Shown here piece by piece: positions 1 to 62,401 of a stretch of DNA of 64,000 bases. Source of the stretch: Amoebophrya sp. A120 (lineage: Eukaryota > Protista > Dinoflagellata); NCBI GenBank assembly GCA_905178155.1, contig CAJINV010000003.1, positions 4,277,253-4,341,252 of the forward strand, given 5' to 3'. Both the position numbers and the translations under genes were made by a program. A model generated the notes under the pieces. The model ran no database searches, was not told the origin of the DNA, and worked only from the letters and a program-made list of their open reading frames with translations. Numbering within the stretch: the first letter of the stretch is position 1; every line of letters begins with the position of its first letter.

Positions 1-3000
1 GTGTCGTCCACCAAGGGATTCTTCGGGTGCTGACTTGATACGTCATCGTACTCATTACCGTTCAGCAGGTTCCGGATTTCCGTGTTTTGTCGCAGCGCTT
101 TTGAAATCGCCGTCCTAAACGTCATTGTGGGAAACGAGTTTGGCGGGAGGACCGCATCTACGAAGTTCGGCAACGAGTACCACTTGCGGAGCGTGAAGCG
201 AATTTCGAGGTTGGCTGCCCGCTTCGAGAGATCTTCGGTGTAGGTGAGCGCCGGATTGGGGTTTCCGCCTACCGTGAAAGGGACGGTGCTGAGCTGAACC
301 TCCGCAACATCCGGACTCGTCACGCCCGCCGCATTCGGCATGCCGAAGGCGTTCGCCAGGCCCTCTGCGAGGGCCTCCTTGACCCCATTCACCTGCATCA
401 GACCGATGTTTTGGGGCGTGCCGCCTCCGGTGCCGCCGACTTGCACGCCGTCGTTGACCGTCCAAGCCTGATTCGGATCCAGTTGTCCACTCGCACCGTT
501 CCACGTGGAAGCTGGAGGCGTCTGCAGGTACAGAAACATGCGATACGTCTTTTGCGTCACCCTGCAAGCCGTGGTGTACGGGGTCTGGTAGAAATCCGTG
601 AAGCAGTTCGTTGCACCAGGGATACTGTTCGACGAGGAGTCCGCGAAGTACAAATTTCTCGCCGGTTCCGTCGCCGCGGCCGCCATCTCCTGGTTTGGAT
701 AGAAGTACCGGTAAAGCGACACATCCTCCGACGGTACGTTTGCCGTGTACTGTCTCGACAGAATACCCCGAACACCAGCGGATTTTAGCCCCACGGGGTA
801 GTTGTTCACGTCCAAGCGCTGCCGCTTCGGCGACGCCCGCGCGCACGACTGCACTGTGCTCACACTCAAAGTCGTCAGACCGAGGTTTTCCACAGCCTCG
901 TCCGTCGCATTGCTCGAGTTTGTGCTGTTGTCCTCATCGCTAGAGGATAAAAACCGTCGCTGAAACAAATTCTGTTCTACTTGGGCCGCCGCTGGCGCTT
1001 GTAAAGTAGAGTACCACGAGGACGATAACCCCAACGTCGCATCCTCCTCCCCCGTACCAAAGCCTGGCTCCGAATCGTCAAGTGGGGGAAGTCCGAGTCT
1101 TTCCCGCTTGATCTCCAGCAGCTGCCGCCTGCTCGAGCCAGCCGAAGAGGAGCTGCTCGACGAACTGGTCGAAGAGTCTTCGCTGCTCTCCGCCTTCACG
1201 TTCGATCCCGTACGGATCACGATCTCGGAACTGTCTATCTGGATTCGGTAGGGCCCCGTGTTAGAAAACGGCTTAGTGTCGTCGTCCAACTGCATCACCA
1301 TGTCGGCGTAATCTCCAGTCATGCTACTGGCCATCTGCCCGGTCGCGTGGTGCTTGTAGCGAAACGCGAGACCGTTCGCCATGATGTGCAGCACCTGCGT
1401 CTTCTTCTCTGCGTTCACCTTCTCCGACTTGATCGCAGTTACCAGCTCGTGGATGCCCATGCCCTGGTCCAGCTCCACGGTGAAGTTGCTCTCGTTTAGG
1501 GCTTTCACGGGGAAGCCGGCCTTCGGCCCTAAGCTGGCCTTCACAATCCGGTAGCGGTCGATGATGGAAGCAATGGTGGCGTTGCCGGAGGAACCGTAGG
1601 TCTGAATGGTCGTCGGGTCCAGCGCCATGACTTCACTAGCCGGAATGTCGCCGTCCGGCCGGTATTGACAAACGTACTCGTTCTTCTCGTTTCGGTTCGT
1701 CCGTCCGGAGTACAGCTCGTCGTACGGGCAGACCTGGCACTGGTTGCCGTTGGCCGCGTATCCTCTGCAAAAGTATCGTATTCGTAAGGCAATCATGCAT
1801 TACAAATCTTTTCATTAAGTCAAATCCGCATTACAAATTTTATTTCTCATGCTGAGAAAATTTGTAATGCATTTATACGATTACGATACTTTTGCAGTTC
1901 ATACCGCGCGAAACTCCGTGGCGTGGCCAAAGTACCCGTGCAGAATGACGTCGCCGGGCATGTTCATGCGCTCGCACGGCTCGGACACCGCCACCTCGGA
2001 CGTCGCGGGGTTGTACACCGGGAGGGTGCACCGCCCGGCGGGACTGCACACCTCGCCCGAGTTGCAGTACACGGTCTCGTAGATCCCGAGCAGGCAGTCC
2101 GGGTCCGTCATGCCGCAGTTGCAGTCGCAGTACTGCTGGTCGTTGTAGCGGTTGGGGGGGCACACCCACAGCGTGGGGTTGCTAACGGCCGGGTAATCAC
2201 TGGGCGGCGTGACCGCGTGGTTCAGCCGGTTGGCGCCTATCTGGTTCCCTCGGGTTACTTTCACCTCGTAGTCAGTGTCACCCTTGCCGGTAACGAGCAT
2301 GCGCTCGCTCCCCATGTTGCCGGTCACCAGGACGTAGAAGGGAAATTTCTTGGTCCACAACGCCACAGGGGTTTTTAGCGTCAATTTGGATGCCACCTGT
2401 TGTTGTGAAGTGGAAAAACGATGTGAACTTTGGATCCTGGTTGGGTTCTGCTGTGGTTGCGGATCAGAAGTTGAGCAGGTGTGAAGTTCGAATTGTTGGG
2501 TCAAAACTTGACTGCCGCCTGAGCGAAAACTTGACCTCAGGCGGCCCTGACAAGACCCGGCAGCACAAGTGCACCACCACAAATTGCTTTAGTTCCGGTT
2601 TTACAGCGTCTGAATTCTATCTTGCTTCAGTCGCGAAAGTTGCCAACGGAACGGAGTAGAACTTTCAAGCAATTCCAGCAGCTGCTTTGGTGAATATCTA
2701 GAGCTTCATCGAAGAAAGATCATCATACGTTGCGGTCCACAATGCACGACCACTGTCACTGAAACGAACTTTTATACTTTTGGACTCTATGCGATTATGA
2801 TTATCGATATCCATATCGACGTATCAAAAGAATCTTCAAAGTAGTACCTTATCCGGAGCATTCGCCTTCAAATATGCGGAATTGAAAAACTTTCCACTCT
2901 TGCCATCACAGGTGACGGACTCTATACTGTGCTGGAAGTTGTTCACGTAGGACGCAAACAGCATCCAATCCGAAAACAGCAGGGGCACCTGGGCGGCCGC

Positions 3001-4431
3001 GAGGTCCTCCACTTGTTGTGTCTGGTTCACCGCCGCGCCGCCGCTGACCGGTACGTAGCCGGTGGGAAACCCGAGATTCACCCGCATCTGCCGCTCGATG
3101 TTCAGCTGGTACTTGCCCAGCTGGAAACTCTGCATAAACCGCTTCGCGTCGGTGGCGTTCCACCCGGTCTGCAGGATCATCATGTTGTTCATCTCCGTGG
3201 GGCGGCGGTGGGTTCCGGTTTCGCTGTTCGTGTACACCGACGGGTCCCAGGTGAAATTGTTCGAGGTGAGCGTGTTCATGTGCTCGGTTTTTTGGTACTC
3301 GCGGGTGTACTTCAGCAGGTAGGGGCGCAGTGCCTCGTACTGGTACCGGTTCACCAGCCCGAACTGCAGCTGACAGGACTTCACGTTGCGCAGCTGCTTG
3401 CGGTCAAACCGCACGAACGCAACGGCGTCGTGGTCGAAAAACTCGTTGTGGCGCTGCAGCAGGCCCATGTCGCTGTACGCGTACCGCAGCGACTCGTCGA
3501 AATTGTGGGTCGAGGAGGTGACCGCCATTTCCCGGATGTACCGCGTCATATTTGGGAAGGGGGACTCGAACTCGGACGCCCCGAACGGGTACGAGTTGAA
3601 CGTGATGGCGGTCTTCTCGTGGGCCCCGAACCCCACGGGCACCTCGGACTGCAGGCTGGTCCCCCCGAAGTGGATGCCGTTCTTGTCGACCCACTTGATT
3701 TTCGCCAGGCTGCTCTTGCCGTCCGCCTCCGAGAATTCGATGCGCTGGGTCCAGGCCATCTGCAGCACGGGAACGTCCAGGTACGGCGGTTTCGCGGAGG
3801 TGAGAAACCCCGAGAAGTACTCCCCCTTCCACTCGCACCCGGGCACGTCCCACTCGTCGCGGGCGGCCGCCCCGGTGGTCAGCGGGGATAATGATGCGCG
3901 GTACTCCCGGTTGATCCCCGACCCCCTCTGGTTGCCCTGCGCATTCAGCCCGGCGCAGTAGTAGTCGGCATTGAGCACGATGTCGCCCCAGGCGGACAGG
4001 TTGGTTTGGTTCGACAACAGATCCCCGAGCGCCATCTGCGCGAAAATGGCGACAAAAATCATCAGGAAAAAACTGCAGCACGCCCCACAGTAGGTGGGGG
4101 GTAAATCCCCCGCGGTGACCTCGCCGGCGCGGTCCATGCGCCGGGCGAATTTGTCCAGCAGCCGCACCAACAGCTTCGGCTCATAGTACTCGATGTCCGT
4201 GCGCTGGATGGTTTCGTCCCACGGCTGATACCGACCAAAGTTTAGGTTGCGGTACGCCCAGCGCCAGAAGGAGCTAAGGCCGGACTCCGTGTCCTCGGCG
4301 TCACCATCCGTCACCACCACCGCGGCAACCTGAGAACTGCGCCGAACGATGCGGCCCGCCTTCCGTGTGAAAGTGCTTACGGAAAACAGGCTGCGCCGGC
4401 CCATATCCTTCATCCGCTCAAACACCGGCAT
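1..4431 (-). CDS. Large hypothetical membrane-anchored protein (>1200 aa, runs off window start); exons ~4431-2848, 2396-1904, 1758-<1
   Basis: ORF 2836-4431 has one hydrophobic segment (CCSFFLMIFVAIFAQMAL). It joins in frame via GT-AG intron 2397-2847 (PDK|VASK) to a Cys-rich exon (YCDCNCGMTDPDC). It then joins across element 1759-1903 (EFRA|ANGNQCQVC) to a frame open to position 1. Confidence 0.75.
1759..1903. mobile_element. TIR insertion / non-canonical intron, family D (145 bp)
   Basis: TATCCTCTGCAAAAGTATCGTA...TACGATACTTTTGCAGTTCATA flanked by the direct repeat CCGCG; removal restores the reading frame; near-copy at 35293. Confidence 0.9.
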
Positions 4432-5007
4432 GTTGGGACTTACGAATCCGAAACCGATACCGAATGTAAAAGAATGTTCTTGGAAAATAAACTTGAGTCG
4501 AGACTTATTTGCAAGGAACGTAAAAGAATGTTCTTGGAAGCGCTAGATTGGTAGCGGGAGAGATCGGCTTCAATACTTTGCGGCGGACGGGTGTCACTAT
4601 TCCAGCGACAGTAGCACTGTGCGCCCGCGCAACTACTACATCTTCTACATAACAAAATCTAAGTCATTGTAGCATTACATGCTACACATTTTTATACTAC
4701 ACACGTACACTTGGTACACATTTTTTCTTTCCGCCACGAAGTACACCTAGATGTTTCTGGAAAATCGTGCTCGCTGAATAGAACGAAGGAGCCTTTGCCT
4801 TTACATCGTAACCAACATTTTGACGTTAGAAAAATATAATGTCAGCAAGCTACGTTTATTATGCACGAACAAAGGGGTGGTGAAACGAACGAGTCAATTA
4901 CTGGCTTGCATACCTGTTTTTGAACGAGTTGCCGATTGAAATCGCACATAAGACTAAGAGGCTGCACGACAGGTACTTCTTACGATGGGCTAAGGAACGA
5001 TGGGTTA

Positions 5008-5137
5008 AGGACCGACATGCTCTTGCACTTGCTTCACCGACTTCTTTCGTTTTCCTTGCATTGAGGACTGATAGGTGAAGTAGGACCGACATGCTCTAGA
5101 ACTTCCTTCAACAGCGTCTTTCGTTTTCATTACATTC
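5008..5137. repeat. Two degenerate tandem copies of a ~74-bp unit
   Basis: AGGACCGACATGCTCT at 5008 and 5082, each followed by a similar CTTTCGTTTTC.TT.CATT. Confidence 0.6.
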
Positions 5138-5192
5138 ATTTCACTTTCTCAGCGTGAACACTTTGATATGGAGATTTTTGCGACTCGAATAT

Positions 5193-14279: not shown

Positions 14280-15950
14280 TCGCCGGGTGCAATAAACATT
14301 TTGTATGCGCCTGAGGGTTTTGCGTACGCTGGACCTCCTTCATCAGCGAATTGGTTTGCGTCCTCTGCAGCCCATCAATCTTGTCGCTTGATTTTTCCAC
14401 TGAGCCCGTATCGTGGTCGCCGACGTCGCTCGCGTACTCCGATACAGCGCGCAAGTAGATGCACCAAAGCATCGTTTGCGCAGGCTAACCCTGATGGTGC
14501 ACAGGAGCACCCATGCAGCTCGCGGCGCAGATCATGCAGCTGGGGGCTAGACGAATTTCTCTGGCATATTACTCTTCTCTCGGATCGGAACTGAACCGCG
14601 TGAGATCGCGATGGTGCTTGTGAAGCAACGCCGCCTTTTGTTCCGCTGTCAGCAACGCCAACTCGATACCCTGTTTCTTGATCTCCGCCGCGACCTCGGC
14701 TTCATCCTTTTCGAGAATTTTCCGGTATATTGTCGTGGCGAACTCGCTAAAGTTGAACAACGAACCTGTGAATTTCGATAAAAAGCTTCGTGAAATATTT
14801 CTTCCGAGACCATATCACACAGAGTATCGAAAGAGCACCTGCGATAAGCTGCAGCAATGAAGAATTGAAATTTTTTCCGGTACTAGAAGAAATAAATTCT
14901 ACCTCGCTCATAACACCGCTCCCTCTGGTCGTTTAGCAACTTCCTGACAAAGTGAATCGGGACCGGCTTTCGCCACGTCTCCGAGGTGGTCAGCTTCTGC
15001 AAGCCGGCGATGCGCTTCGAGTCCGTTGGTAGCCGGTGCGACCACCAGAAACCGGCGCTGGTGAGCTCCAGCATGAGCCACTCGCTATGACAGTGCACAA
15101 CTCCCCCGCCCCTCATTTGTGTTGCATGAACAGCAACACAAGCAACAGCAGAAAAGGGGCTTTCGCATGACAAATCTGCATGCGGATTGTAGTACTATTT
15201 GAGGTTCCAAAATTTGTCATGCTAGCAGTGCTTACGAGCAAGGTGTGAGTTTGGTATTTTGCATGACAAATGAGGGGGAGGGGGAGTTGTGCACTGTCAT
15301 ACTCGCCGCAGTTCATCTTGAAGATGAGCCCGGCCGAAGTCTCGTCCTGCTTCTCAAAGTACTTTATCTGCTTCCACGAATCTTCGTCGGCGGAGTATTC
15401 TTGCCGCTGCCGCTCTCCGCGGGTGTAGAGGGCGGTGCTGTCGAAGGTCTTGTACTTCAACTATCCTGAGTAAAAACGTACCCACGCCAGAGCTGTAATG
15501 CAGATTTGCAAAGACAGGAAGACTTGTACATGCGCATCCCCATGAGAGCCATTTCCAATTGTGTTTTGGAATTTGTGTTGCTGTGAACAGGATGAGCAGA
15601 TGAATCTGCGATGCGGCTGCACGTGCTAACCTGCACTACACTGCATAGCGCAACTTGTCATGCGTGACTCACAAAACTCCTAGGTTTGTGTTGCAAAATC
15701 CCCATCCTGACTCTGGTGTGGGTACGTTTTTACTCAGGATATCAACTCCAACGTCATCAAGGTCTCCATAAACTCATCGTCATCCAAGATCTCGGCTCCG
15801 GGGACCCCCGGCATCACAAACCCGGGGGATGAGCTGCAACAGCCCATTTGTTTCCCTCGTCGCTTGCGTCCACAAGCAGCAGAAAGTCTCGAGGCGTTGG
15901 GCGTGGGTGCCTATTAACGAAGCGGATGAAAACGGCACGACTCGCAATGG
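14280..15950 (-). CDS. Hypothetical multi-exon protein interrupted by two TIR insertions; ends approximate
   Basis: Frames join across 15462-15741 (MTLEL|KYKTF) and 15086-15301 (NCGE|WLMLEL); further GT-AG intron ~14765-14901; exon joins near 14480-14570 not resolved. Confidence 0.5.
15086..15301. mobile_element. TIR insertion / non-canonical intron, family B (216 bp)
   Basis: TATGACAGTGCACAACTCCCCC...GGGGGAGTTGTGCACTGTCATA (22 bp perfect, ~35 bp imperfect); direct repeat CTCGC. Confidence 0.9.
15462..15741. mobile_element. TIR insertion / non-canonical intron, family C (280 bp)
   Basis: TATCCTGAGTAAAAACGTACCCAC.CCAGAG 31-bp TIR with one mismatch; direct repeat TCAAC. Confidence 0.9.
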
Positions 15951-21213: not shown

Positions 21214-22619
21214 GGATTAAACGGAACACGGAGGCTACTGATTCCGGGCGAACGCGCTAGGGTTGTCGGCTTTCGAGGAACGCCAAGCGATTTAACGTGC
21301 AGAAGCTGTGTTGATGAATGCCGCAGCGGCCTGCGACCGTTGCAGGTCTTGTTCCCCGCTACTGCAATCCCTGTGCCCGTGCAGTTCTTCTTCTTTCACT
21401 TTTTCTCCTAGCTTCGACAAAATTCGCTTGTTGAGGCAGCAAGTTGTTTAGTGAGCCTGGATGTGGAGCTGCAGGTCGGCTACAGTTCTTTCACGTTGGT
21501 ATGTCGTTCCCTTTGCTTGTAGTTCATCTGCAAATCAAACAATGTCCATGTCTTGCTCGTCGATCCGTGACGCAAGGCTCCTCCCGGTTTTCCGTCAGCA
21601 CTTTGCGAACTTGCGCGTCGTCCCGAAGTCCCGATGCCGTAAACTTGGGCGTACCTTCTTCCAAACGGCTTCAGAAGTGCTTGGATTGCTGAATGCGCGC
21701 TTCCAGGACCAGGAGAAAGGTCACTATAAGACACGTTTGATCACGCTTGGCTTTCCCCGCGTGCCTCGCCGACGTCGGAATGCCAAGGAGCTCCTGCCAC
21801 GTTGCCTTTTTGCTTTTTATTTCTGCTCTGCCATCCAATGTCAGCTTTGTTTTCGTTTTCGCCACCTAGTGCAGCAAGTGGTAAATGATGGAGCAGATCC
21901 CGAGGCTATGTAACAGCCTCCGCACGCTCCTGCACGGTTGGGTGGTGCTCGCACTCACGCTCGACTAGACCTAGAGCTTGTTGCACACGCAAATCAGCTG
22001 CCTGAGCGTGGGCATTGAGGCCGCCTCATAACACTTCGACTTCCTTAAAAACAGTCACAGTTTCGTCCTGACGCTGACCTATAGTGCGGTATAACTGAAG
22101 CTGAGAAAGATCATCAAATAAAAATTTTGAATTTCCATGCATGCGGCGGAAGAAAACAACGGAAGACGAAGAACAACACAAAAACTACTTACTTGAGCAG
22201 CTGCGATGGAACAACAAAATGTATTTCCGCACGAAGCGCCTCTCTCGACCACGCATTGTTCACTTCCTTGACAACTTTCTGACTGGCAGGCGTTCCGGGG
22301 CATTTTCGAACAACATTTACCAAGTCCCTCTGCGCAGGCAAGTACGGCAACGTGATGCGCCTGTATGTTATCTGAGCTGCGTGTACGCTAGTAACAAAAC
22401 GCATGTCAAGGGTCGAATCCATGGTGCTGCTGCTGGTGAAAAACGGCGAGCATCGAATGGGCCGGTCGGAAGCGGTAAGAGCGACGAACTGTTCAGCTCT
22501 AGGCGTAGTCTTTTTTCGTTGCGACACAGACAAAATAAAGCGAAAGATCCCAAACGCGACGCAGAACACTTTCAGGCCTTCGAGGAGGCTGACAAGAACG
22601 ACTCCCGCAGATCTGACCT

Positions 22620-24288
22620 CATTCGCAAGGTATGCTCCTTGTGGCCTCACTCCGAAGGCACTACTTTTGGTCCCCTGCGCACGGGAGCTTTTTTGGCCCC
22701 CAGTTCTGACCGCATCCGCAAGGTATGCTCGTTGTGAGCGCAGCGCCCAAGCAGTGCATTTGCTCCCCCGCCCCTCGCGCACGCAAGGGGGCTTTTTTCG
22801 CCACCAGATCTGAACACATCCGCAAGGTATGCTCGCTGTGAGCGCACCTCCGAGGCCGTGCTTTTGCTCCCCTGCGTGCGGGGGCTTTTTTGGCCCCCCG
22901 TTCTGACCGCATCCGCAAGGTATGCTCGTTGGTAGCGCACTACCAGGGCACTGCTTTTGCTCCCCTGCGCACGGGAGCTTTTTCGGCCCCCCGTTCTGAC
23001 CGCATCCGCAAGGTATGCTCGTTGTGAGCGCACCTCCAGGGACGTGCTTTTGCTCCCCTGCGCGCGGGACCTTTTTTGGCCCCCCGTTCTGACCGCATCC
23101 GCAAGGTATGCTCGTTGGTAGCGCACCTCCAAGGAGGTGCGTTTGCTCCCCTGCGCACAGGAGCTTTTTTGGCCCCCCGTTCTGACCGCATGGGCACGGT
23201 ATGCTCGTTGGTAGCGCACTGCGAGGGTTCTACCTTTGCTCCCCTGCGCGCGGGAGCTTTTTTGGCCCCCCGTTCTGACCGCATCCGCAAGGTATGCTCG
23301 TTGTGAGCGCACCTCCAAGAACGTGCTTCTGCTCCCCTGCGCACGGGAGCTTTTTTGGCCCCCCGTTCTGACCGCATCCGCAAGGAGTGCTCGTTGTGAG
23401 CGCACCTCCAAGGACTTGCTTTTGTTCCCGTGCGCACGGGAGCTTTTTTGGTGCCCCGGTCTGACCGCATCCGCAAGGTATGCTCGTTGTGAGCGCACCT
23501 CCAAGGACGTGCTTTTGCTCCCCTGCGCACGGGAGCTTTTTTGGACCCCAAATCTGACCGCAGCCGCAAGGTATGCTCGTTGGTAGCGCACTACTAGGGC
23601 ACTACTTTTGCTCCCCTGCGCACGGGAGCTCTTTTGGCCCCCCGTTTTGAGCGCATCCGCAAGGTATGCTTGTTGGGAGCGCACCTCCAAGGACGCGCTT
23701 TTGCTCCCCTGCGCGCGGAAGCTTTTTTGGCCCCCAAATCTGACCGCATCCGCAAGCTATGCTCGTTGGTAGCGCACTACTAGGGCACTACTTTTGCTCC
23801 CCTGCGCACGGGAGCTTTTTTGGCCCCCCGTTTTGACCGCATCCGCAAGGTATGCTCGTTGGGAGCGCACCTCCAAGGACGCGCTTTTGCTCCCCTGCGC
23901 ACGGGAGCTTTTTTGGCCCCCAAATCTGACCGCATCCGCAGGGTATGCTCGTTGGTAGCGCACTACTAGGGCACTACTTTTGCTCCCCTGCGCACGGAAT
24001 CTTTTTTGGCCCCCCGTTTTGAACGCATCCGCAAGGTATGCTCGTTGTGAGCGCACCTCGAAGGACGTGCTTTTGCTCCCCTGCGCGCGGGAGCTTTTTT
24101 GGGCCCCCGTTCTGACCGCATCCGCAAGGTATGCTCGTTGTGAGCGCACCTCCAAGGACGTGCTTTTGCTCCCCTGCGCACGGGAGCTTTTTTGGCCCCC
24201 CGTTCCGACCGCATCCGCAAGGTGTGCTCGTTGTGAGCGCACCTCCAAGGACGCGCTTTTGCTCCCCTGCGCACGGGAGTTTTTTTGA
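22620..24288. repeat. Tandem array, 93-bp unit, about 18 copies
   Basis: ATCCGCAAGG recurs at 22911, 23004, 23097 and onward; unit CCGCATCCGCAAGGTATGCTCGTTGTGAGCGCACCTCCAAGGACGTGCTTTTGCTCCCCTGCGCACGGGAGCTTTTTTGGCCCCCCGTTCTGA. Confidence 0.95.
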
Positions 24289-27670: not shown

Positions 27671-29475
27671 CTAGTGCGGCTCAATCATGTTGCCACGCTT
27701 CATGGAGCCGCAGCTCGGATCGCGGCTGAACCACATGTGCATCTGCCAGCGCGCCGATTCCAGCTGCTCGGTGCCGTAGTGACTCGGGCACCCCGCGGCT
27801 CTCATGGTGGAAACGTTGTGCTTTTTGAGGTTCCCCGGGTTGTAGCTCAAACCGGACTCGTGACTGAGGCCCGCCGTGTACTTGCACCACGTCATCGGCT
27901 CGGTGTACGACAATGGCATAATTTCTCGCTCCATCGCACAGAGGCTCGCGTACCTGTCGTGTTGGATCGTTTATTGTTTTTGCTTCGTCCTTTTTGCAGC
28001 TTTTTGTGCATTAGGGGCGTCATCTAGTCACGAGGAAATCGCCACGTTCAACTGCATGCACCACAATGTGAAACAACAAAACAAAGACTCACAGCGACAA
28101 CTTGATCTTCTACATACGAGATGATCCAAATGTAAGAAGTATACTTGTTCTCTTCCGGGGTGTATTGGTCTTGCAGATCTACCCTAAGGTCGGATCCAGG
28201 ATTTAATCTTGTCCATGAAAGCGAATACTTCGGGTCCCGATGAAACCACTGCGCCGTACCGTATGGGTTGTACTGTTTATTTTTTTCGTGAAAATCAATT
28301 TTGATTTTTACACGTTCGCAAGAAGATTTAAACCACAAAACTCAACATATACTTTCATACTTCTCTCAATTCCTGAGCCCGCGCGTTGGCGTCTCCGAGT
28401 TTCTTGCCGATGACAGTTTCCGAGTACACAGCTGGTTGATTCGTGCTGGTACCAGGCACTCTTTGTATTTGCTTCATCGACTTTTTCTTCTGCAGGGCTT
28501 TCGGATTGTCAATGGCGCGCTCGAGCTTCGAAGGACCGCATTTACCTGTTTTTGTTTTATACTAGAAGGACGATCATTTTCTATCCATCTTATGGTCGAA
28601 AAACAATCTTTTGCGCACCATGTCAAGAGTTCGCATCAAGATCAATTGTTCAACACAAAAACCGCATGAGATCGAAAAAGTAATCCTAATTCAAATAATT
28701 TCTGTACCGAGCCTCTGGTAGGCAATTTCTATTCCCTGGTGCCACCTTGTCGAGAATTGGTTGCATGGCCCCTTCTTCGGGATATACCCGAGGTACTTAC
28801 TCACATTTGTGACATACTTCGGCTGGTCAACCCTTGGCATGTGGCCAATTTTTCGGGCTGGAATCTTGTGTAGTCTGCCGAGCTGAAAATGAAATGCATT
28901 CATATGCCATCAGATGAAAACCGATCAATTTTCAAGCCTGTACCTGCCACGCTGAACTTTCTTCAAAAATAAAACTAGAACCACTCAAAGCAACGCACAT
29001 CTCAACGCAGGCAGGTACCTGTATGTCATCAATGCCGGTGTGCTCGTGCCCTGGCTTGTCGCAGTACTTTCGAAATGCCGCATGGTTATCAAATGTAAAA
29101 ATGTCTGGGTCTGGAAGAATCCGAACTTGTGGTGCTGCATTTGGATTCTAAAAAAATCTGTATTGCATGACCAAAAAAGGAAATGCAATTTTGGCTACGC
29201 GGAGAGGGAATTTGTCATGCGGAATACGCATCAAGAAGCCCTCAAAAGATCCGTATTGCTAGAGTATGCATCACAGACATCATGGCTCATGCAAAACGTG
29301 CATGACAAGTGTCACAATCTTCCAGACCCAGACATTTTTACATTTGATAATGGTGAGTTTTTGACAACCGGTCCTGGGGTCCGAAATAAATCGGCGTGGG
29401 GCCCGTGTCTTGCACCGGAATGCGCAAATTTCGGCCCTCATCGTTGTATCCGCGGACTTCGTCCGCACCCGACAT
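27671..29475 (-). CDS. Hypothetical multi-exon protein (possibly flagellar; YLGYIP motif)
   Basis: MSGADEVRGY...SKTHH|AAFRKYCDKP is in frame after removing 29087-29349; later exons flanked by GT-AG (28883-28707, ~28545, 27954-27671). Confidence 0.6.
29087..29349. mobile_element. TIR insertion / non-canonical intron, family A (263 bp), reverse orientation relative to the other A copies
   Basis: Perfect 32-bp TIR TATCAAATGTAAAAATGTCTGGGTCTGGAAGA; direct repeat ATGGT. Confidence 0.95.
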
Positions 29476-30516: not shown

Positions 30517-31724
30517 TCAGACTGCATTTTCATCCCTCAATCGGTAGTAGTACACCGGGCTGCCCGAATCCTTTTCCCGATCGCTGGTGGGATCGATCTT
30601 GCTCCAGGAAAACGGTAGGTTCTCCTTGCGCTCCTCCACCAATTTCGACGAACAGGCGGTGACGCCCTCGATCCCGTGCATGGAAACAAACATGCGCAGC
30701 TTTTTCGGCAGGGCGGCGCACACCTGTCCGAGCTGCTCGCGGGAGAAGGAGAAGTTGTATACGAGCGTGGCATCGTCCATTTTCGCTTTGGTAAAGTCCT
30801 TCTTCCGGAAATCGATCTTGCGCACGTTGTCGGGCGATCCGGTGAGCGACCGAATCTGCTCCGGGGACAGTTTCCCGCACTGCTCCGGGAGGGACTCCTG
30901 CGTCTTCCGAAACAGAGAGGAGAACCCCTTCGTATCCTTTTTGTTGATCTGGTTCACCTCCTGCACCTTCGTCAGCGAGTTTCTCAACAGAAACAGCTTC
31001 GCGTTCTGCGCGGCGTCGTACCGCGTCGGCTCGAATTCGATCCCGATGGCCCGCTTCACCGGCGTCGTCAGCGCGGTCTGCACGACGGCTTTACCGAGCC
31101 CGCTTCCGAGGTCGTAGAAAACGTCATTGGCCGTCACGTCCATGCGCCAGAGGATCTGCGCCAACGAGTCGGAAAGCACTTCCCCGTACAACGGGCTGCC
31201 CCCCACTGCCTTCAGCGCCGCCTGCTCCTTCTCCGGCACGTAAAATCCCGAGGGCAGACTCCCGTAAACAGTGTTCACCAGGTCGCCTGCGCAGGCGCTC
31301 AACTGCCGAAAGCCTTGCTCAGCCTTCGCGATCACATCAGCACGACGCTGCAGGGGCACCATGTTGCGTCGCACAAACGAGGCGCCCCGCACATCTTGTA
31401 TGAATTGCAAAAATGTCTGGGTCTGGAAGAGTGCAGGAGTTTGCCATGCATATTTTGCATGCCCCGTGAGGTCTGTGATGCATGCCCTGGCATCAGAGAT
31501 TTTGCGAGGGCTTTCTGATGCTCATACCGCATGAGAAATGCCCTCTCCGCGTAGCACAAACTACGCGTCTTTTGCTGTTCATGCAATACAGATTTTATGT
31601 AGAGTCCAAAGGTAGCATCACAAGTTGCATCCTTCCAGACCCAGACACTTTTGCATTTGATATCTTGATGAAGGAAGCAAACCTGGTGCAGCAGGAGAAC
31701 CAGAAACCGCGGCACACCGTACAT
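30517..31724 (-). CDS. DOT1-like class I SAM-dependent methyltransferase, paralog 1
   Basis: LYGEVLSDS, DVFYDLGSGLGKAVVQTAL, AIGIEFEPTRY; the N-terminus MYGVPRFLVLLLHQVCFLHQD joins VRGASF after removing 31399-31662. Confidence 0.8.
31399..31662. mobile_element. TIR insertion / non-canonical intron, family A (264 bp)
   Basis: TATGAATTGCAAAAATGTCTGGGTCTGGAAG...CTTCCAGACCCAGACACTTTTGCATTTGATA; direct repeat TCTTG. Confidence 0.95.
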
Positions 31725-32548: not shown

Positions 32549-33340
32549 TCACGCATGCGGCTGGTAGAAGTAGATCGAACTTCCACCGGATTTTCGGCTC
32601 CACGACATGGGTAACTGCATGACGTGCGCTTTCCAGAACTTTCGGGTACAATTTTCCACGTCCCCGAGATCCTTGAGAACCACAAACATGCGCACCTTTT
32701 TTTGTGGAAGCAAATCGCAGATCTTTCCCAGCAATTCCGTAGAGAAACAGGTTGCGCATGAGTAGGCGATGGTGGCATCGTCGAGGGTCGCCTTCGCGAA
32801 GTCCTTCTGCTCAAACTCGATCACCCTATCGGCCGCCGCCGGCGTTCCCAGCACTGCCTTGCGTGCTTGGAGCGCCGTTTTGTGTCTTGTCGCTTCGAAT
32901 TCGATACCGACTGCTTTCTTCACGGGTGTGGTGAGCGCGGTTTGAAGCACCGTCTTCCCGATTCCCGACCCGAGATCGTAGAAGACATCGTCTCTCGTGG
33001 GCTTCACGTACTCCAGAACTTTCGCCAACGACTCCGGTAGAATTTCCCCGTAAATCGGCGAACCCCCTACCGCCTCCAGTGCCTTTTGCTCTTGTGCCGG
33101 GATGTTAAATCCCGGATTCAAGTCCTCGTACGTCTTGGTCAACAACGTTGATGCTTCATCCGTGTCGAAAACGCCCCCGGGGGCTCTTTTTGCGGCCTCG
33201 GTCTTCAACTTGCTCTTACCTTGGCCCAGCATCAACTTGTGCCGCAAAACGTTTGCGCATTCGACGACACAAAAATGCGGGGTGAGCAGCACTGCCAAGC
33301 CGGCGAAACGCCAGGCAGCAGAACTATACGCGACAAGCAT
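32549..33340 (-). CDS. DOT1-like class I SAM-dependent methyltransferase, paralog 2
   Basis: IYGEILPES, DVFYDLGSGIGKTVLQTAL, AVGIEFEATRH, DATIAYSCATCF; hydrophobic N-terminus. Confidence 0.85.
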   Translation of the reverse strand: MLVAYSSAAWRFAGLAVLLTPHFCVVECANVLRHKLMLGQGKSKLKTEAAKRAPGGVFDTDEASTLLTKTYEDLNPGFNIPAQEQKALEAVGGSPIYGEILPESLAKVLEYVKPTRDDVFYDLGSGIGKTVLQTALTTPVKKAVGIEFEATRHKTALQARKAVLGTPAAADRVIEFEQKDFAKATLDDATIAYSCATCFSTELLGKICDLLPQKKVRMFVVLKDLGDVENCTRKFWKAHVMQLPMSWSRKSGGSSIYFYQPHA

Positions 33341-33691
33341 ATTTTCACACTACCATGCTCCGGCGTTAGCGGTGCTGTTCAGGGTGGGATGATTTAAGTA
33401 GAAGGTGAAAAAGAAAAGCTACAGTGCAGTCCGTCATGTGAAAACCTCCTATCGAAACCATGTCGCGCACACTCTTCACCAACTCTCAGAATTCTTCCCT
33501 TCCAAGAAACATGCTTCCATAAACGTAGCCTCACATCAACATACATAGGACACTCTGACTCTAGGGGTTTCTGCTCGTTGTTCCACCTTTTGGACAATCT
33601 GGTCCCTGTGACGGCGCGCCAACACGCTATGGCTAATATCCCATTCCCATATAGGCCGCTTAAGCACATAGCAAGAGACAGCCTGTGCATT

Positions 33692-36600
33692 TCAGTTGTA
33701 GCCGTAGCTGCCGATAGATCTTGATCCTGGTAGGTACGCGTTTGCTTTGTTGAGTAGTAGACTAAAAGAATTTCTGAATGCGAACCGAGTCTGGGACTGC
33801 AGCCCAAGGGAAAATTGTAACCGCGACTGTTCATCACACACTGTCGAAGACTTCCCAGAACTCGTCAGACTCCTGCTTTTCCACTTCCACCCCGGCGATC
33901 CGAACCTGACTGCGCACGAGCTCCTGGCTCTGCAAGAAGTCTTCTGCAAACTTCCCCGAGTTTGCCTTTGCCTTGTCATCTGGATGAGCTAAGGCGCCGA
34001 CCCACAGGAAGATCGTCGGCTCCCCGTCCGAATCGGGTGCAAAGAACAATTGCACGAATTCGCTGTCGAGGTCGTCCGGATCGGGCATGCTCATCGGATC
34101 GTCCCAATTTGGGCACCTGGAATGGGACGTTGCTTCACGTAAGTACTAGTACAGGAGGTTTTGCACTGTTGCTTGTACATCTAGATTGATCCTAGTCCTG
34201 GTCCTGCTACTTTTACACGCAAACAGAAAAAACAGGTACGTGAAAAGCTGCGGTTTGATTTTCAATTTTGTCTTCGATGACGTAACAACTTCGGTGTTCA
34301 ACGGGGGCGTCCTTGGCGAGGTCATCGGTGTCCGCGGCGTCTCATTTTTGGCTCCAAACGTCTTGACCAGCAGCTCGTAGTCGTCATCGTTACTCCGTAT
34401 TGATTGCACCTGCAAATTTCTTGGTCACCGATTCACCGGAAGTAGATGTTGTTCACGTAGTTGTCAAAGTAAAAGAACTCGTCCTGATTCACATTTGAAT
34501 CTTTTCGCCCTACAAGTTCCAGAAAAAATACGAAACAGGACCCGAAATTCCAATACCTGCCCTGAGCCTTTGTTTTCGCTCCGCAGAATGCCCCAAAAGG
34601 CCTCGGACGGGTTCGGGTCTCGGCAGTAATCGATGACGGGTCTTTCGTTGGGTGGCAGCCACCGCCTTCGGCAGTCGCTGACCTGCAACAGGAGTTTCTC
34701 GGCTTCCTGCTCCGGAACCACGGACTCGGGCCCACGCCACACCAAGAACTTGTTCCGCTTGCTGTCAAAGCACGCGTAATCGAAGCGCGGGTCGATCCAC
34801 AACGAGGGCACATTGCGGTATTCGACCGCGAACAGAACCAGAAACGGGTCCCGGTCGTGGTGACACCTGATCTTGCAAAGCTTCGGATCGGCTACTACCT
34901 GTATAAATTTAAGTAACGTTGGAGATCGTCCTCGGGACTTAGAGGTTTTCTATTCTTTTTTGTACTCGTGTGGATTTGCTTGAACGGCGAGGACCTGCAT
35001 CAGCATCGACTCTGTGACTTATGGGGGTCATACATTGCAAAATTAGTACCGCTTCCCCAGGTTTTTCTGAGTTGGGGTTCGGAATCCCCAGTTCCTTCTG
35101 CCAGAGCAGAAGCTGGACGTAGAAGCCGGTATTGGGGCGGCAAATGGGGCGCGTTTGCTGAATGCGCGAGAGGACCTCCCCGACGGGCTTCTTGGTCAGG
35201 TGCATCAGGTACACCAAACACAGAGTGCAACTTCGGCTCACACCTTGGCCGCAGTGGAACAAGATGCGCGGCTTTTTCCGGGTCGTTTCCGCTATCCTGT
35301 GCAAAAGTATCGTACTCGTATGGCAATCATGCATCAATTTTTTTCTTAAGGAAAATCCGCATTACAAATTTTATCTCTCATGCTGACGAAATTTGTAGTG
35401 CATTTATACGAATACGCTACTTTTGCAGTTCATATCCGCGGCCTGCACGCAAAACTCCAGCAGCTTGAAGAATCCACTGGAGATATCCTCCGCGCGGCCG
35501 TCCTTGAAGTAAAAGGTGAGGTACTCGAAGTGCCGCGACGGGGCTTTCTGAGCTGTAGTAAGAGCAGGATAGAAGTCTTTCTATTCCTACCACATTTTTC
35601 AGTTCCACCGAAAGCAACTACACTTGAAGTCGAAATGCTTGCGGATTCAAAAAAAAAAACGAAATCTATGTTTGTATTCAAGAAGTACGCGAGTCGTCGT
35701 CCGAGTCCTCCAAGTTGTCAGTTACTTCGGCGGCGGCGTTGACGATGTGTGTGATCCCCTGATTCAGAAGCTGTGTCTTGTTTCTCGCGACATCCGAGGC
35801 CCCGATATAAACGAAGCTTCCTTTCAACCGCGCCAGCGATGGATCGTCGAGGTCGCAGGGTATCTCGCTCAACTCCGGCCGGTATTTTTCGAGCATTTTT
35901 TGGTTCTCGGCCTCCGCGCCGTACTGCAGCTGCTGTTGTTGGCTCTGTTGCACCACCCGCGGGGTCGGCGGCGTCACGCCCTCCCCCTCGCCGGTGGCCG
36001 CCACCTGCTCGCCGCGTCTTCGTTTCAGCACGCCGGGCGCCCGCTCGGGGGACGCAGCGTCCTCCGCGAGGACCTGGACGTTGGGCGACTTCATCACGAT
36101 TTGGGTGGAGTGCTCCACGATCTGCTCGTCCTGTTCGCGTGGACTCACCCGCGACATCACTGCCTGCTTCACCAAGTTCTGACGGTAGCGGTCCGCGGGG
36201 GAAACCAGCTTCTTCGTCGGGTCCGACGGCGTTTGACCTATAGCAGGTTTGGGAGGGGAAGGGGATGAGATGATATCACAACCACAAGCATGCAAACGAC
36301 TATATGTAGATTGGAATCGCAAGTAAGTGTACTTATGCGGCCCCATGGTGGATAGCTGGTGTACGCATGGTTAAAGCAAAGATTTTCAAAAGCTTGCATA
36401 CCAGCAGCGCCTTTTCCGCGTGCAGAGCGGGGCGTAGCGGTCTGCGGCCGTCCTCTCGCAGAATCTTGTTGATTTGCCCGGCCTGCAGCAGCAGCGGGTG
36501 GTGGCTTGACCGCCCCTGCATGGAACGATTGCGCCCGCGGAGTGGTGAACACACCGAGCCCTGGCTGCAGTGGCAGGCGAGGAGTGGCCAGCGGGGTCGC

Positions 36601-37329
36601 TTGCAGCACTGCGCTCATAGGGAAGGACTGCGGTCTCGGCATGGGAATGCTGAAGCGACCGCCCAGACCGAGCACTGGGGGCCGTCCCACGCTTTTGTCT
36701 GGACTTGTCGCCCCGCCCGACGTCCCCAACAATGGTATCTGTGTCACCTGCGTCGCGCCAGTAAATTTTGGCAGTGCCTGCGGTCGCGAAAACGGTCCGT
36801 CGAGACCCGAGGGCTTGGCCGTCGAGGCGGCCGGCCTTGCGACGTTGGTTTGCTTCGCGCTTGTGGGCAGCAGCGCAGGCACGCAGAGTTCTCCATAACT
36901 ACCCGGAAGCGACAAACGGGGAGTCTGCTGCAACACGCGCCTCGCGGGCGAAAAAATCGCCGAAGACCCGGTCGAGCCGCCACTCTGGAAATTCATGACG
37001 CGCGGCACTGGTGCGGTAGTACCGGCTGCCGGCTTTGCTGGGTAGTTCCTGGTCGTGCTACTGCTCGAAGGTGCCTTCTGCTGCATTTGGGAACTTCTGT
37101 TTCCCATGATCGTAGTGGCATCGTCGTAGTTACTTGCATCCTGTGACCGCCCGGGACGACCCGAGTTCGCTGTTGCCCAGGAGCTTGCGGCGGCTGCGGC
37201 ACGGTTCCAGGTGTCTGCCGAAGTCCCGTCGCGAAATGAAGTTGCTCTGGGCAGAAGAGAACCGAGTTCAAATCGCGGCGTTGTGACGTAGCCGAAATTA
37301 TCTGTGGATAAACGAGAATTCTTCATCAA
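33692..37329 (-). CDS. Dual-specificity (MKP-like) protein phosphatase, multi-exon; 3' end approximate
   Basis: FVYIGA, GITHIVNAA, catalytic loop ILFHCGQGVSRS, RPICRPNTGFYVQL; join EFCVQA|AETTRK across 35293-35434. Confidence 0.8.
35293..35434. mobile_element. TIR insertion / non-canonical intron, family D (142 bp)
   Basis: TATCCTGTGCAAAAGTATCGTA...TACGCTACTTTTGCAGTTCATA; direct repeat TCCGC; similar along its length to 1759-1903. Confidence 0.92.
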
Positions 37330-37392
37330 CGATCACCCGCACAACGGGTTGGTGCTGCCACAAGTGTTTTATTTTTGTTCAGTGTGGTATTG

Positions 37393-40300
37393 TCATCTAC
37401 ATTGGAGGTGCAGGTGGTTCAGGTGAAAGAAAAAAGAAAAACTAGAATTACAACAAAAAATTGTACTTCTGCCACTCTGCTGAACATCGTTCATGACGGA
37501 GAACGCAGTCTCAAGACGCGTTGGAACCGCAGAGGGCCCGGCATCTACGGGGACCGCCACATCTAGAACAAGATTCCGCCGCAGCGGACCAATTGATCTC
37601 TGGTGCGCCAGTTTCCGGTGCAGAACGTTCACTTGCCGCAGCGCCTTGTGGAAGACTTCATTCTTCACGCGATCGCCCTTAACTCGGAAAAAAGTGACCA
37701 TGACATCGCTACGAATCTGCCGGCCGGAGTCTGGCGGCGGCGAGGTTCCCCGGGGGCTTTGCAAAACCTTCTCCATGTTTTGCACCTTGGGCACCAACAC
37801 GTGTACGGGAAAACCCGCCCCCTCCGGGGTCTTGAAGGGTGCGTCGCCAACCCCCGATATCGGCTTTCTCGTCGGAGCTTGCACTGCGCGCGGCGACGTG
37901 GGTGCCGTGAAATTCCACAAATCGCGGCAAATCGGCGACACGTCAAAACCGGGTGGGAGCTCAATACGCGTCACCACGGAGCTCTCCATGTACGACCGCA
38001 CTTTTCCGAACACTACCTAGAGACGATGTATAGAGACGAAATAGGTGATCTTCAGCACTGTTCTTATCCCTAAAGAAATTCGCAGCATACCGTCGGGATT
38101 TGCCCTTTTTCTTGCGCCAACGCAGGCGCTGCAGCTTTTATGGTCGCGCCTGCGTAGGAGTGGTGTTGCCTCCCCTGGTGGGTTTTTGCACGCGGCCCAG
38201 GCGTCGCTCTAGAGAAACCAACAGGCTGGCACGCTAGCACCCCGGCGAGCCTAGACATAGACTAAAGAGGCCCCCCCACTGCGCAGATCGACGCGCCCCG
38301 CGGGCACTCACAACACACCCATCCGGCGCAGGCGGGCATCTTTTCCGCGGCCCCGAGCCCGACGTACTCGCGACCCAAAAAAGGCCGCAAGCCGGCTCGT
38401 GCGGACTTGGTGCGCAGGCCCCTCGAGTCCTCTTGGAACTCTTCAAGCGCGCCCCCATCTCTCACCCGCCGCCCCAATCACTCACCGTTGGCACCGGACC
38501 GCTTTCGCGGCCGTGGTGGACGCACTGGCAGAAGACCCAAAAAGCTTCCCGCCTGGTATTCGTTTAAACGCTCCAAAAAGATAGATAAGAACACCTACTG
38601 CAACGACCTGGCATTTGGCATTGATGTTTTGGCACGAAGCAGAGTTGGAGCTTCTGCGCCAGATGTTCCCGGTCTCGTTTTCTGCTGTTCTTATCCTCCA
38701 CGCCATGCATAGATAAGAGCATGTTTGTAACGACCTGAAGCTGGTGTTTGGCACGAAGCAGAATTGAAGCTTCTGCGCCAAATGTTCCCGCTCTCGAAAA
38801 ATGCTGTTCTTATCCTCCATTTGGTGCATAGATAAGAACATGTTTGTAACGACCTGAAAATGGTGTTCTTATCTATGCACGGAGAGGAGGGATAAGAACA
38901 GCATTTTATAGAGAACGGGAACATCTGGAGGAGAAGCTTCAATTCTGATTCGTCCAATCACCCTACTGCAGGTTGGAAGCTGGAGAGCGACACGACTGTG
39001 GTGGTCAACGAGAAACTCCGAGGAGGCTACTACGTCCAACTCTGATTCATCCCAAAACACAGCAACAGGTCGCTGCAGTAGTGTTCTTATCTATGCACGA
39101 GCGGGAACGTGCGGAGCTGAAGCACCATCTTTGCTTCTAGTCCCTCCCATATGCGTATTATTTTATAGAGCCAGCGCCCCATCGGTCCTAATTTAGGACC
39201 GACGGCACGGCGCAGGCAACAAAGACAACACCGGAGGGGCCATCATCTGCTATGGAGCTCTCCATGTACGACCGCACTTTTCCGAACACTACCTAGTAGA
39301 GACGATGAAAGTGGCACCAGATTGATTCGACACACTGAACATTTTGTGTGAGATTAGGCTGGGGCTACACATTGACATACAGTAGACATCATATCATTCT
39401 CTTCACGTCGTCCCTTTCTATAACTTTCATGTACATTTTTGTGATGAACGTTTCCAAGCCACAATCGCATACCTCCATGATCACGTAGCATTCGTCTCGG
39501 CGAAGGTCTTCAGGATTGAATTCGAACTGCTGCTTCGCGTCGAGTATCAGATGTAAAAATGTCTGGGTCTGGAAGAATGCAAGATTTGTGATGCAGGTTT
39601 TCCATGACCCATGAGGTCTGGAATGCGAGACCCAGCATGACAGATTCTTGGAGGTCTCTATCATGCCTTTCCTGCATGAGAAACTCCCTCTCAACTTGGT
39701 CAAACGCGGACAGCTTTTGGCACTCACGCAACACAGATTTTTGCATCATTTAGATTTAGCATGACAAGTTCTAATCTTCCAGATCCAGACATTTTTGCAA
39801 TCCATATCGAGGCACGAAACCCCTGCAGCGGCCGGCTGCTCGCCGTCCCGCCACCGCCACATCCGATACGCGGCGCACTCCTGCCATGACGTTGTGGAGT
39901 TGCCGGGGTTGTCGATGCTGCGTGCAAACTCCTCGAAGGACTGAGGGTCCTTCTCGAACGCGCACGCGTTCCCCATGGTGCGGGAAAGTAGAGGACCACC
40001 AGCAGTCGATTAGTACACCAGCACGGTTCAGACTCCGCAGATGTTGCAGATCACCTTTTTACTGCCTTCATAGTTTGGCTGGGTCCTCACATCCGTATCG
40101 CATTCTTTTGTCTCTAGGGCAGATACTCGTTTTTACTTGGCGGAAATGCTTGTGCTTCACAAAATGTTGACCGTGCAGCTGCCCGCACGGATCCTTTTCT
40201 TGAAGATCATGCATGATACGAGCGATAGCAGTATCGTGTCAGGAAGGACATCTTTCGAGTTGGACGTGACTGTAGTATGCAAGGCGGGCGATAGAAGGAC

Positions 40301-60531: not shown

Positions 60532-61881
60532 CTACTGTTTGTTCTTGCGCGCCAAGTAGCGCTCCTTTGCACTGAGTGCCCGCTGGTTTCGCTCGACCTT
60601 TTCAGCTTGCTGCTGTGCCTGGCGCTCGGCTTCTTTCTCCTTTTCCACCGCCGCGGCCGCCTCTGCGCGCACGCGCTTTTCCTCGGCTTCCTGCTGTTTC
60701 TGTGCGAGACTTGCTTCTGCACTCTGCATCTCGAGCTTGGGGCGTTTAGCCGTGTCCCCGCTGCCTTCAACATCCTTTTCAGCGTCGCGCTTCGTGGTCG
60801 AAGTGGTCGTTTCCGCTGCTGGATCGTCTGGCTTCGCTGCGCCCATAGTTGACATTTTGTCTGTCGCCTTCTGCGGTCCGGCTGTCAATCCCGGAGGCCT
60901 TTGCGGCCCTAAAGCGCTCATATTGTCTGCTGCTTTCGCTGGCGCCGCGGCCATACCAGGCGGACGCGCGGGGCCTACCGCCACGCCGGCCGCTGGTGGT
61001 TTAGCAGGTTCTTCCCCCGGTGCCGTTGTTTTCTGATCTCCAAAGGCTTTCTTGGTCTGCTCCTCAGCACCTCCCGCACCCTCGCCTCTTCGCTCGTTGA
61101 GCAGCCGTTGGTGCAACTCACCGGAGAATCCCCACGCGGCCTTTGCGTTTTTCGCAAAAGCGGCCTCGTCGGCTTGGTCCTGTTCGAGGAGTTGTGCTTC
61201 AAACTTTTTCCGCTTCTCGAGTTCCCGTGCGTAGGCGCCGGTGACGAACGCCTCGGGCTTCTTTTCCTCCGCGTCCAGGGTGCGGTTGATTGCCCGCTGC
61301 TCCAAAATGGCCTTTTCGACGTCGCGCCGGTCCTTCGTCTCGCGCATCCCCTCCACGTACTGGCTCTTCTTTTGCGCGAGCTCCTCGTGGTACTTCTTAT
61401 TCATGACCGTCAACCCAGTGCGCTTTACCTGCTCCAGCGCGTCCGTGGTCTGCATGTTGTGGTACTTCTTCTCCATCTCCGCGTCGTCTAGGTGTTCGTC
61501 GTACTGGAACACACTCGCGTCCGCCGCAATCATGGCATCCATCTGCTTCTGCAAGTTCTTCGACACGCCAGGAATGTGCGCAGCTGCAGTGCTACTTTTC
61601 GTGGAGGTAGTTACCGTCGTTGATGTTGAGGAGGACGAAACGGCGGCTACCGCACTGTGCGCGATAATGGTGGGGTGGTAACCCTGCTTGATTCGCTCCG
61701 CTTCGAGGTTCTCCTGCGCGTCGATCGCCTCCTGAAACATCTTGGGAACCACGGCGGGCGCCTTCGCTTTCGCCAGACCTTGCTGCTGCGACAAGACACT
61801 GACCCCGAAGGCGCCAGGCTTCGCCTTCGCCGGACCCGTAGCGCCTGCGCCGGGCTTCGAAAACGACATTGAAAATTTCAT
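60532..61881 (-). CDS. NSRP1: Nuclear speckle splicing regulatory protein 1 (CCDC55/DUF2040)
   Basis: DASVFQYDE, KSQYVEGM, EAFVTGAY..EL, C-terminal SAKERYLARK. Confidence 0.8.
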   Translation of the reverse strand: MKFSMSFSKPGAGATGPAKAKPGAFGVSVLSQQQGLAKAKAPAVVPKMFQEAIDAQENLEAERIKQGYHPTIIAHSAVAAVSSSSTSTTVTTSTKSSTAAAHIPGVSKNLQKQMDAMIAADASVFQYDEHLDDAEMEKKYHNMQTTDALEQVKRTGLTVMNKKYHEELAQKKSQYVEGMRETKDRRDVEKAILEQRAINRTLDAEEKKPEAFVTGAYARELEKRKKFEAQLLEQDQADEAAFAKNAKAAWGFSGELHQRLLNERRGEGAGGAEEQTKKAFGDQKTTAPGEEPAKPPAAGVAVGPARPPGMAAAPAKAADNMSALGPQRPPGLTAGPQKATDKMSTMGAAKPDDPAAETTTSTTKRDAEKDVEGSGDTAKRPKLEMQSAEASLAQKQQEAEEKRVRAEAAAAVEKEKEAERQAQQQAEKVERNQRALSAKERYLARKNKQ

Positions 61882-62195
61882 GGTGGGCGTGTTCTGCTCA
61901 AGAAAGAAAAAGAATTTCTAAAGTTTCTACTGGAGGTGGTGCGTGGGCAGTCTAGGTCTACACCTCCTCGCGTCCATATCTACTTCTACACTACGCAACT
62001 TACAACAAACCATTTGCTGGGCAGCTTTAGTCGATTGTTCTTGTTCATACTAATACCTCCTACAAAGAATACTTTTGATTCTGGAAGGGTAGTTGCCTAC
62101 TGGCAGAAATCTTACAATGAGAAGGAAGGGAAGAGGGACGCTAGCGGCTTTGTTTTTGATCGACGACCATGCACACTTCGAGAGCCATGAATTAT

Positions 62196-62401
62196 TATCA
62201 AAGAAAAAAAGTTCGTCACGATCACTCATGCGCATTCTTGCAATACAAAATTGTTTGTCATGCGTAAAAATGCATCACAGCCAAACCTCATTAGGGATTT
62301 CCCTAGTGTTTCTGCAATACAAGGAAAGTTTGTGATGCTGAGAAAATTTGTAATGCATAACCTGCAAATTAGTGATTGTGACAAACTTTTTTCTCTCCAT
62401 A
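62196..62401. mobile_element. TIR insertion, family E (206 bp), in UTR or intergenic DNA
   Basis: TATCAAAGAAAAAAAGTTCGTCACGATCACT...AGTGATTGTGACAAACTTTTTTCTCTCCATA; direct repeat ATTAT. Confidence 0.85.

Follow-up and report, generated by a model that had tools for sequence, protein, structure and literature searches.

In a stretch of 64,000 nucleotides from the genome of the dinoflagellate Amoebophrya sp. A120 (contig CAJINV010000003.1, positions 4,277,253 to 4,341,252; hereafter the window), we analysed nine short inserts bounded by terminal inverted repeats (TIRs) and flanked by 5-bp direct repeats, and these are almost certainly published A120 introners (Farhat et al., 2021; PMC7789003) that are removed at the RNA level. 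The elements as such are already known from that system. What is added here is that an element is lost together with exactly one of its 5-bp repeats, in any orientation and next to any flank, that the same families exist in a sister lineage, and that there is a weak pointer to the position of the cut. An earlier note on this DNA, made from the sequence alone, had connected the inserts with introner-like introns of Amoebophrya; the organism was right, but the inserts are not introner-like, they belong to the published A120 system itself.

A pattern scan of the window recovered the nine elements of the earlier note with the same starts and ends. All of them begin with TAT(C/G), end with (C/G)ATA and are flanked by an exact 5-bp target site duplication (TSD), and 23 to 30 of the first 30 bases are complementary between the two ends, giving a TIR of about 30 bp. 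The maximum number of TIR-paired elements in 50 shuffles of the window was 0, compared to nine observed. Six further TATS...SATA pairs (S, C or G) with a direct repeat, which brought the scan total to 15, had only 7 to 15 of 30 complementary positions and were rejected as chance matches. The mean element length is 227 nt. Comparison by blastn yielded five families (A to E), as described before: family A comprises the elements at 1759 and 35293 (89% identity), family D those at 29087, 31399, 39545 and 57892 (72-79%), with 29087 inverted with respect to the other three, and the elements at 15086, 15462 and 62196 are singletons. Eight of the nine start with TAT-N7-AAA, and the element at 15086 starts with TAT and lacks the A-run at positions 11-14. 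Long end-to-end hairpins were predicted for the three elements that were folded (z-scores of -8.1 for 15086, -8.4 for 31399 and -4.6 for 35293). When the junction was slid across the duplication, none of the nine elements offered a GT-AG pair in any equivalent register on either strand, in agreement with the earlier note. The elements and their host features are as follows.

1759..1903: family A element, 145 bp, TSD CCGCG, inside a minus-strand cysteine-rich open reading frame (ORF)
14766..14902, minus strand: canonical GT-AG intron of 137 nt, in the same transcript as the elements at 15086 and 15462
15086..15301: family B element, 216 bp, TSD CTCGC
15462..15741: family C element, 280 bp, TSD TCAAC, in the same gene as 15086
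29087..29349: family D element, 263 bp, TSD ATGGT, interrupting the first coding exon of a gene on the minus strand
31399..31662: family D element, 264 bp, TSD TCTTG, close to the beginning of an ORF for a DOT1-like methyltransferase (Pfam DOT1)
33837..39976, minus strand: phosphatase gene model P0002 (1128 amino acids), with seven GT-AG introns, all starting with GTA, and two element introns
35293..35434: family A element, 142 bp, TSD TCCGC, just upstream of the dual-specificity phosphatase motif HCxxGxSRS
39545..39806: family D element, 262 bp, TSD TCGAG, forming the first intron of gene model P0002
57892..58155: family D element, 264 bp, TSD CGAGC, interrupting a long ORF whose N-terminus is weakly ANAPC4_WD40-like
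62196..62401: family E element, 206 bp, TSD ATTAT, non-coding by score, between Prp3 and NSRP1-like genes

Removal at the RNA level was followed in assembled contigs of the sequencing runs X3 to X6, which derive from one sample, and joints were counted among those listed. We treat these runs as RNA, since GT-AG introns are skipped in their contigs and one contig has a poly(A)-derived end. At 15086 and 15462, the RNA joints skip 221 and 285 nt, respectively, in four of four runs, and at 31399 an X3 contig joins position 31392 to position 31662, which amounts to a skip of 269 nt. At all three joints listed, the skip size is that of the element plus 5 nt, as the earlier note had predicted for sequencing reads. 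In all four runs, the main contig has the joined form and reaches full gene depth. One contig carries the skips at 15086 and 15462 along with that of a GT-AG intron, and the phosphatase model combines both intron types as well, which bears out the statement that the same genes also use ordinary introns. The comparison drew on runs X1, X3 to X6, X9 and X10 and took in the seven elements from 1759 to 39545, and the host gene of that at 1759 is not covered by the RNA contigs. The raw RNA runs X9 and X10 (140 and 2 reads, respectively) do not cover the host genes; the 140 partly aligned reads of X9 fall mostly on 39722-39796, within the family D element at 39545, from which they differ by two T>C changes, and they presumably come from a relative of this element that is transcribed at another place or in a different strain. 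At position 29513, in 5' non-coding sequence, an RNA contig has one extra A in a homopolymer relative to the window and the DNA run, probably an allele or an assembly difference.

The public A120 gene models P0001 and P0002 (NCBI), which are annotations and not independent RNA evidence, match the window translations exon by exon. In P0002, 147 nt are skipped at 35293 and 267 nt at 39545, where no GT-AG option exists, and deletion of the element plus 5 nt at 57892 (269 nt) gives a translation identical to P0001 at 896 of 896 residues. The earlier claim that such deletions rebuild continuous proteins in eight cases is borne out by these models for the phosphatase and for 57892, but its appeal to a conserved ANAPC4 is not: the Pfam match stays below threshold (17.7 bits with a cut-off of 22.9; E 0.004) and lies about 580 codons upstream of the junction. 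What supports the junction at 57892 is the gene model and not conservation, and the ANAPC4 identity is not established. A homolog of the phosphatase (P0003) is colinear on both sides of the 35293 junction with a 3-residue gap at the junction itself; the 47-residue piece upstream of 35293, when searched alone, gave no match to DSPc. At 1759, at least 226 codons stay open on either side once the element plus 5 nt is taken out, and for this element and that at 29087 the removal is predicted from frame continuity and coding score. Retention of the element closes the reading frame in eight of nine cases. A paralog of the DOT1-like gene does not align across the 31399 site and so provides no empty-site control.

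In A120, 65% of the introns are non-canonical, and 29,850 introner copies were assigned to 1,954 families with a mean length of 240 nt; their inverted repeat consists of TAT, seven variable bases and at least three A, and their direct repeat measures 3-5 nt (Farhat et al., 2021; PMC7789003). The elements of the window share with them the host organism, as shown by protein identity, the TAT-N7-AAA motif, non-canonical ends, RNA support and the mixture with GT-AG introns. Ends, repeats and A120 proteins match, and the system studied here is therefore that of the published A120 introners. Some features differ from the published description (PMC7789003). The direct repeat of 3-5 nt (5 bp in the legend to Fig. 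S19) is here always 5 bp and exact in nine of nine elements, the inverted repeat measures about 30 bp here compared to 8-20 bp, and elements are described as strain-specific between A25 and A120, whereas all five families of the window also occur in a sister genome. We infer that the varied 'splice sites' of Table S4 in Farhat et al. (2021) represent, at least in part, equivalent registers within a single duplication; their figures (logos and S19-S25) may already show the 5-bp rule or the flank composition. A review of dinoflagellate genomics restates these findings (PMC11453091). A later survey listed 58 A120 families, mostly classified as 'TIR DNA' (Gozashti et al., 2025; PMC12130899, supplementary file 8), many of which have, as here, lengths of 145-320 bp and TIRs of about 30 bp. 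Its family 38, annotated as 'Ginger, 5-bp TSD, TA/TA Termini', is about 810 bp long with integrase-like homology and is a candidate from the literature for an autonomous partner; families were compared by description and not by sequence, and no long copy of this kind was found here.

The end pattern of family D was present at at least 148 loci among the matches listed in the metagenome assembly JACKZZ01, of which 147 were analysed, and it had no match in viral contigs. These loci are assigned to a sister lineage because one protein is 81% identical to its A120 ortholog. The statistics given below are based on the 147 loci, which total 415 kb with partial overlap and were de-duplicated by end sequence, and on the window. 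All five window families are present in the sister loci, with best matches of 82-97%. Among 284 TIR-paired TATS...SATA candidates in these loci, 211 had an exact 5-bp repeat, 31 had one mismatch and 42 had more, many of the latter being mis-paired or inner motifs; repeats of 4 bp occurred twice and repeats of 6 bp never. At one sister locus, where removal of the element plus 2 to 8 nt was tried, only element plus 5 aligned gap-free at the junction to the A120 ortholog. A family C copy at L061 (3329-3608) carries an exact flanking repeat of 8 bp rather than 5 bp and several other copies resemble 7-bp offsets, all of which may be aberrant insertions. In 201 copies, A was found at positions 11-14 in 85-96%, and the stem pairs poorly at positions 4-7 (0.44-0.82) compared to 0.95-0.98 at positions 9 and 11-13. 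Seven copies exceed 400 bp, with longest stop-free frames of 59-150 amino acids; none of the seven contains a nested element or an ORF of transposase length, and no autonomous partner with matching ends was found among the 147 loci. Like miniature inverted-repeat transposable elements (MITEs), the elements are short, dispersed, bounded by TIRs and a TSD of fixed length, and without coding capacity.

In order to orient the copies, a codon model was trained on 16 window ORFs; it was confident for 58 of 107 leave-one-out segments and assigned the right strand in 58 of these 58. With it, 129 of 201 copies were oriented, or 192 of 300 in the loosest run, and unoriented copies were excluded from strand counts. 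The families lie in coding sequence in both orientations (27:22, 10:9, 9:6, 7:3, 4:4, 3:2 and 1:3), and therefore any signal must reside in the symmetric ends. At none of the five positions do the bases of the TSD depart from phase-matched coding background (p 0.26-0.96, n = 108). A GT-AG pair was possible in 7 of 108 coding copies (simulated, 3.4 ± 1.7), GC-AG in 0 of 108 and AT-AC in 3 of 108 (simulated, 3.2 and 3.3, respectively). With so few GT-AG pairs and duplications at coding background, removal therefore ignores the junction sequence, and no selection is visible on the junction outside the element. The GT or GC donor and AG acceptor of U2 introns are accordingly missing in the window (0 of 9) and in all but 7 of the 108 coding copies. 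In 74 of 129 coding copies the removed length is not a multiple of three. Codon position 3 holds the first base of the duplication in 61 of 129 copies (p = 0.003), or in 78 of 162 (about 48%) in a looser run, an excess that base composition does not explain.

For the spread of the elements, TIR and TSD suggest that a DDE transposase, supplied in trans, makes a staggered cut of 5 bp; this enzyme would probably be integrase-like, as family 38 of Gozashti et al. (2025; PMC12130899) suggests. Ginger2/Tdd transposons resemble the elements in having TIRs and, in TDD-4 and TDD-5, a 5-bp TSD; their termini are TGTNR and their targets biased (PMC2836005), in contrast to TAT(C/G) ends and unbiased targets here, where no transposase was found. 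The elements stay in the DNA, and at the sites where RNA contigs show the joint the element is absent from the transcript together with one copy of the duplication. We place about half of our confidence in the reading that a relaxed host spliceosome, positioned by the terminal hairpin, carries out this removal. The catalyst would be the host's own U2-type spliceosome, the donor would be cut one base before the UAU start of the element (the N/UAU register) and the acceptor four bases past its AUA end, with the terminal hairpin presumably serving as a ruler for an acceptor that lacks AG. A review likewise interprets the non-canonical introns of Amoebophrya in terms of a relaxed spliceosome (PMC11282704). 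A precedent for a re-tuned U2 spliceosome is Fritillaria borealis, whose MITE introns, alike in TIR and TSD, are removed by a modified U2 spliceosome (PMC11282704; 10.1101/2025.08.15.670264); they have fixed ends (AG-AC/AT) and a TAC target (PMC11282704), in contrast to the A120 junctions, which show no fixed sequence outside the element. In A120, 83 of 89 spliceosomal proteins were found and no U1 small nuclear RNA (snRNA), and the mechanism was left open (Farhat et al., 2021; PMC7789003). No paper resolving it was found in the open-access literature, a scope outside which most subscription papers lie.

A hint at the cut register came from the terminal bases, which were left free in the count of changes. 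A changed TAT or ATA was found in 16 of 192 oriented copies, with 0, 1 and 4 changes at sense 5' positions 1 to 3 and 7, 2 and 2 at the last three 3' positions, so that the first U of the sense strand never changed, compared to seven changes of the last A (p = 0.016, uncorrected). No strand bias between A>G and T>C was seen (22 versus 22). An apparent invariance of the A at position 2 (0 of 488 ends changed) fell when the search was loosened. Ten of ten canonical host introns examined start with GTA, four of them with GTAT; therefore, an intron beginning one base before the element would read N-UA-U, a host donor without its G. The apparent constraint on the first U resembles host GUA donors and gives a weak hint in favour of a relaxed spliceosome.

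Several observations weigh against such a spliceosomal cut. The first-U result is one of about a dozen comparisons, is based on 16 events and would fail strict correction, and when the three terminal positions are pooled the changes amount to 5 versus 11 (p = 0.21). One copy has TTT at its 5' end and four copies have U3 changed. At the would-be position +1 (d5), G is not selected (G 58, A 44, T 32, C 29; n = 163), AG is not enriched at the would-be acceptor (15 of 163), and the sense 5' ends (97 TATC, 32 TATG) do not suggest selection for G at +5. Neither the A/U run (8 versus 8) nor the candidate branch region at positions 16-20 (13 versus 15) shows a 5'/3' asymmetry, and a U-tract is not selected. 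Finally, among 21 mismatched duplications, 13 are synonymous, a number above the expectation for a fixed cut (p 0.01-0.07); a floating cut would account for it better, which hints that the cut may float.

Alternatively, a dedicated pathway, non-spliceosomal or based on a second spliceosome, could read the TIR hairpin, cut the flanks with a total offset of 5 nt and ligate the exons, a possibility that we take seriously without considering it probable. It would account for a removal that is wholly indifferent to junction bases and orientation, for the strong hairpins and for the missing branch and U-tract asymmetry, and the U1 snRNA not found in A120 (PMC7789003) is in line with it. Similarly built nonconventional introns of euglenids, which share the TIR hairpin, TSD-like junction repeats, non-GT-AG ends and the company of U2 introns, leave as circles (PMC11282704). 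The likeness is incomplete: euglenid ends are Y/R with CAG/CTG at +4..6 and -8..-6, compared to TAT/ATA and unbiased flanks in A120, and their circular products have been demonstrated (PMC11282704), whereas the A120 elements are known here from sequence and contigs. A symmetric reader would not be expected to impose a constraint on the first U (0 versus 7) that is specific for the 5' end and matches GUA donors, nor does the poor pairing at stem positions 4-7 suit it, and no candidate enzyme turned up, although no search aimed at one was made. The earlier note had concluded that non-GT-AG introns are lost with exactly 5 nt, which stands, and had inferred a second excision pathway, which is the less favoured reading: the only discriminating hint found here, that of the first U, leans towards the relaxed spliceosome. 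Only tentatively can one envisage a spliceosome-independent machine that reads nothing but the TAT-ended hairpin and removes it with the transposase's own 5-nt stagger; if true, it would mean scarless erasure from mRNA of any insertion, in either orientation and any context, a general 'undo' function that serves one superfamily of transposons and is used at tens of thousands of sites.

A short direct repeat combined with a stable hairpin is a build known to cause reverse transcriptase to skip, and the joints might be template-switch artefacts across the repeat-bracketed hairpins, with mRNAs retaining the elements. We consider this very improbable. The build fits this class of artefact, the RNA evidence here consists of contigs of one sample and the published support is also RNA-seq (Farhat et al., 2021; PMC7789003). 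Retained elements, however, would close the frame in eight of nine cases, and more than half of the coding copies (the 74 of 129 given above) remove a length that is not a multiple of three. The joined form is the main contig rather than a minor one, and homologs are colinear across the joints.

Scarcely credible is an excision from the DNA of transcriptionally active nuclei in the manner of ciliate internal eliminated sequences, which have TA-bounded ends and leave one repeat copy upon removal, as would the elements of this alveolate host, since the same RNA contigs also lack GT-AG introns and are thus spliced RNA, and since contigs of the DNA-like run X1 (even depth of about 45) run, among the joints listed and with the reservation that contigs drop rare variants, from unique flanks into the elements at 29087, 31399, 35293 and 39545 at the single-copy flank depth of 41-45. 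Absence from the DNA, as in ciliate-type elimination, was thus not observed for these four. Over the element bins, summed DNA depth reached 10^4-10^5 compared to about 45 in the flanks, a value that is not a copy number. At other genome loci, neighbouring elements in the DNA contigs are separated by only 31-40 bases, and these gaps are very short exons between introners.

With a relaxed spliceosome or with another catalyst, the question of how tens of thousands of introns without GT or AG are removed is narrowed to one geometry, for which the candidate register puts the donor at N/UAU and the acceptor four bases beyond the hairpin. The true cut can be located with copies whose duplications are mismatched (42 of 300 here). 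For engineering, a hairpin intron that leaves no scar and depends on no particular context would be a useful component.

In the neighbourhood of the elements, all Pfam-supported genes found in the window lie on the minus strand, to which 45 of the 46 ORFs submitted to the search belonged. The element at 62196 is situated between the gene for Prp3, a protein of the U4/U6 small nuclear ribonucleoprotein (63059-63688), and that for an NSRP1-like splicing regulator (60532-61917). At 30517-33349, two tandem DOT1-like methyltransferase genes are 57% identical over the core, and both encode hydrophobic, signal-peptide-like N-termini, which is odd for a histone methyltransferase family. Inside the 1,456-bp GT-AG intron of the phosphatase gene, direct and inverted repeats of 119 bp at 38628-39137 represent another repeat type, with a DNA depth about 10 times that of the flanks. 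A tandem array at 22612-24287, which gave many inverted matches in the blastn comparison, repeats a 93-bp unit about 18 times, and the unit contains a palindrome.

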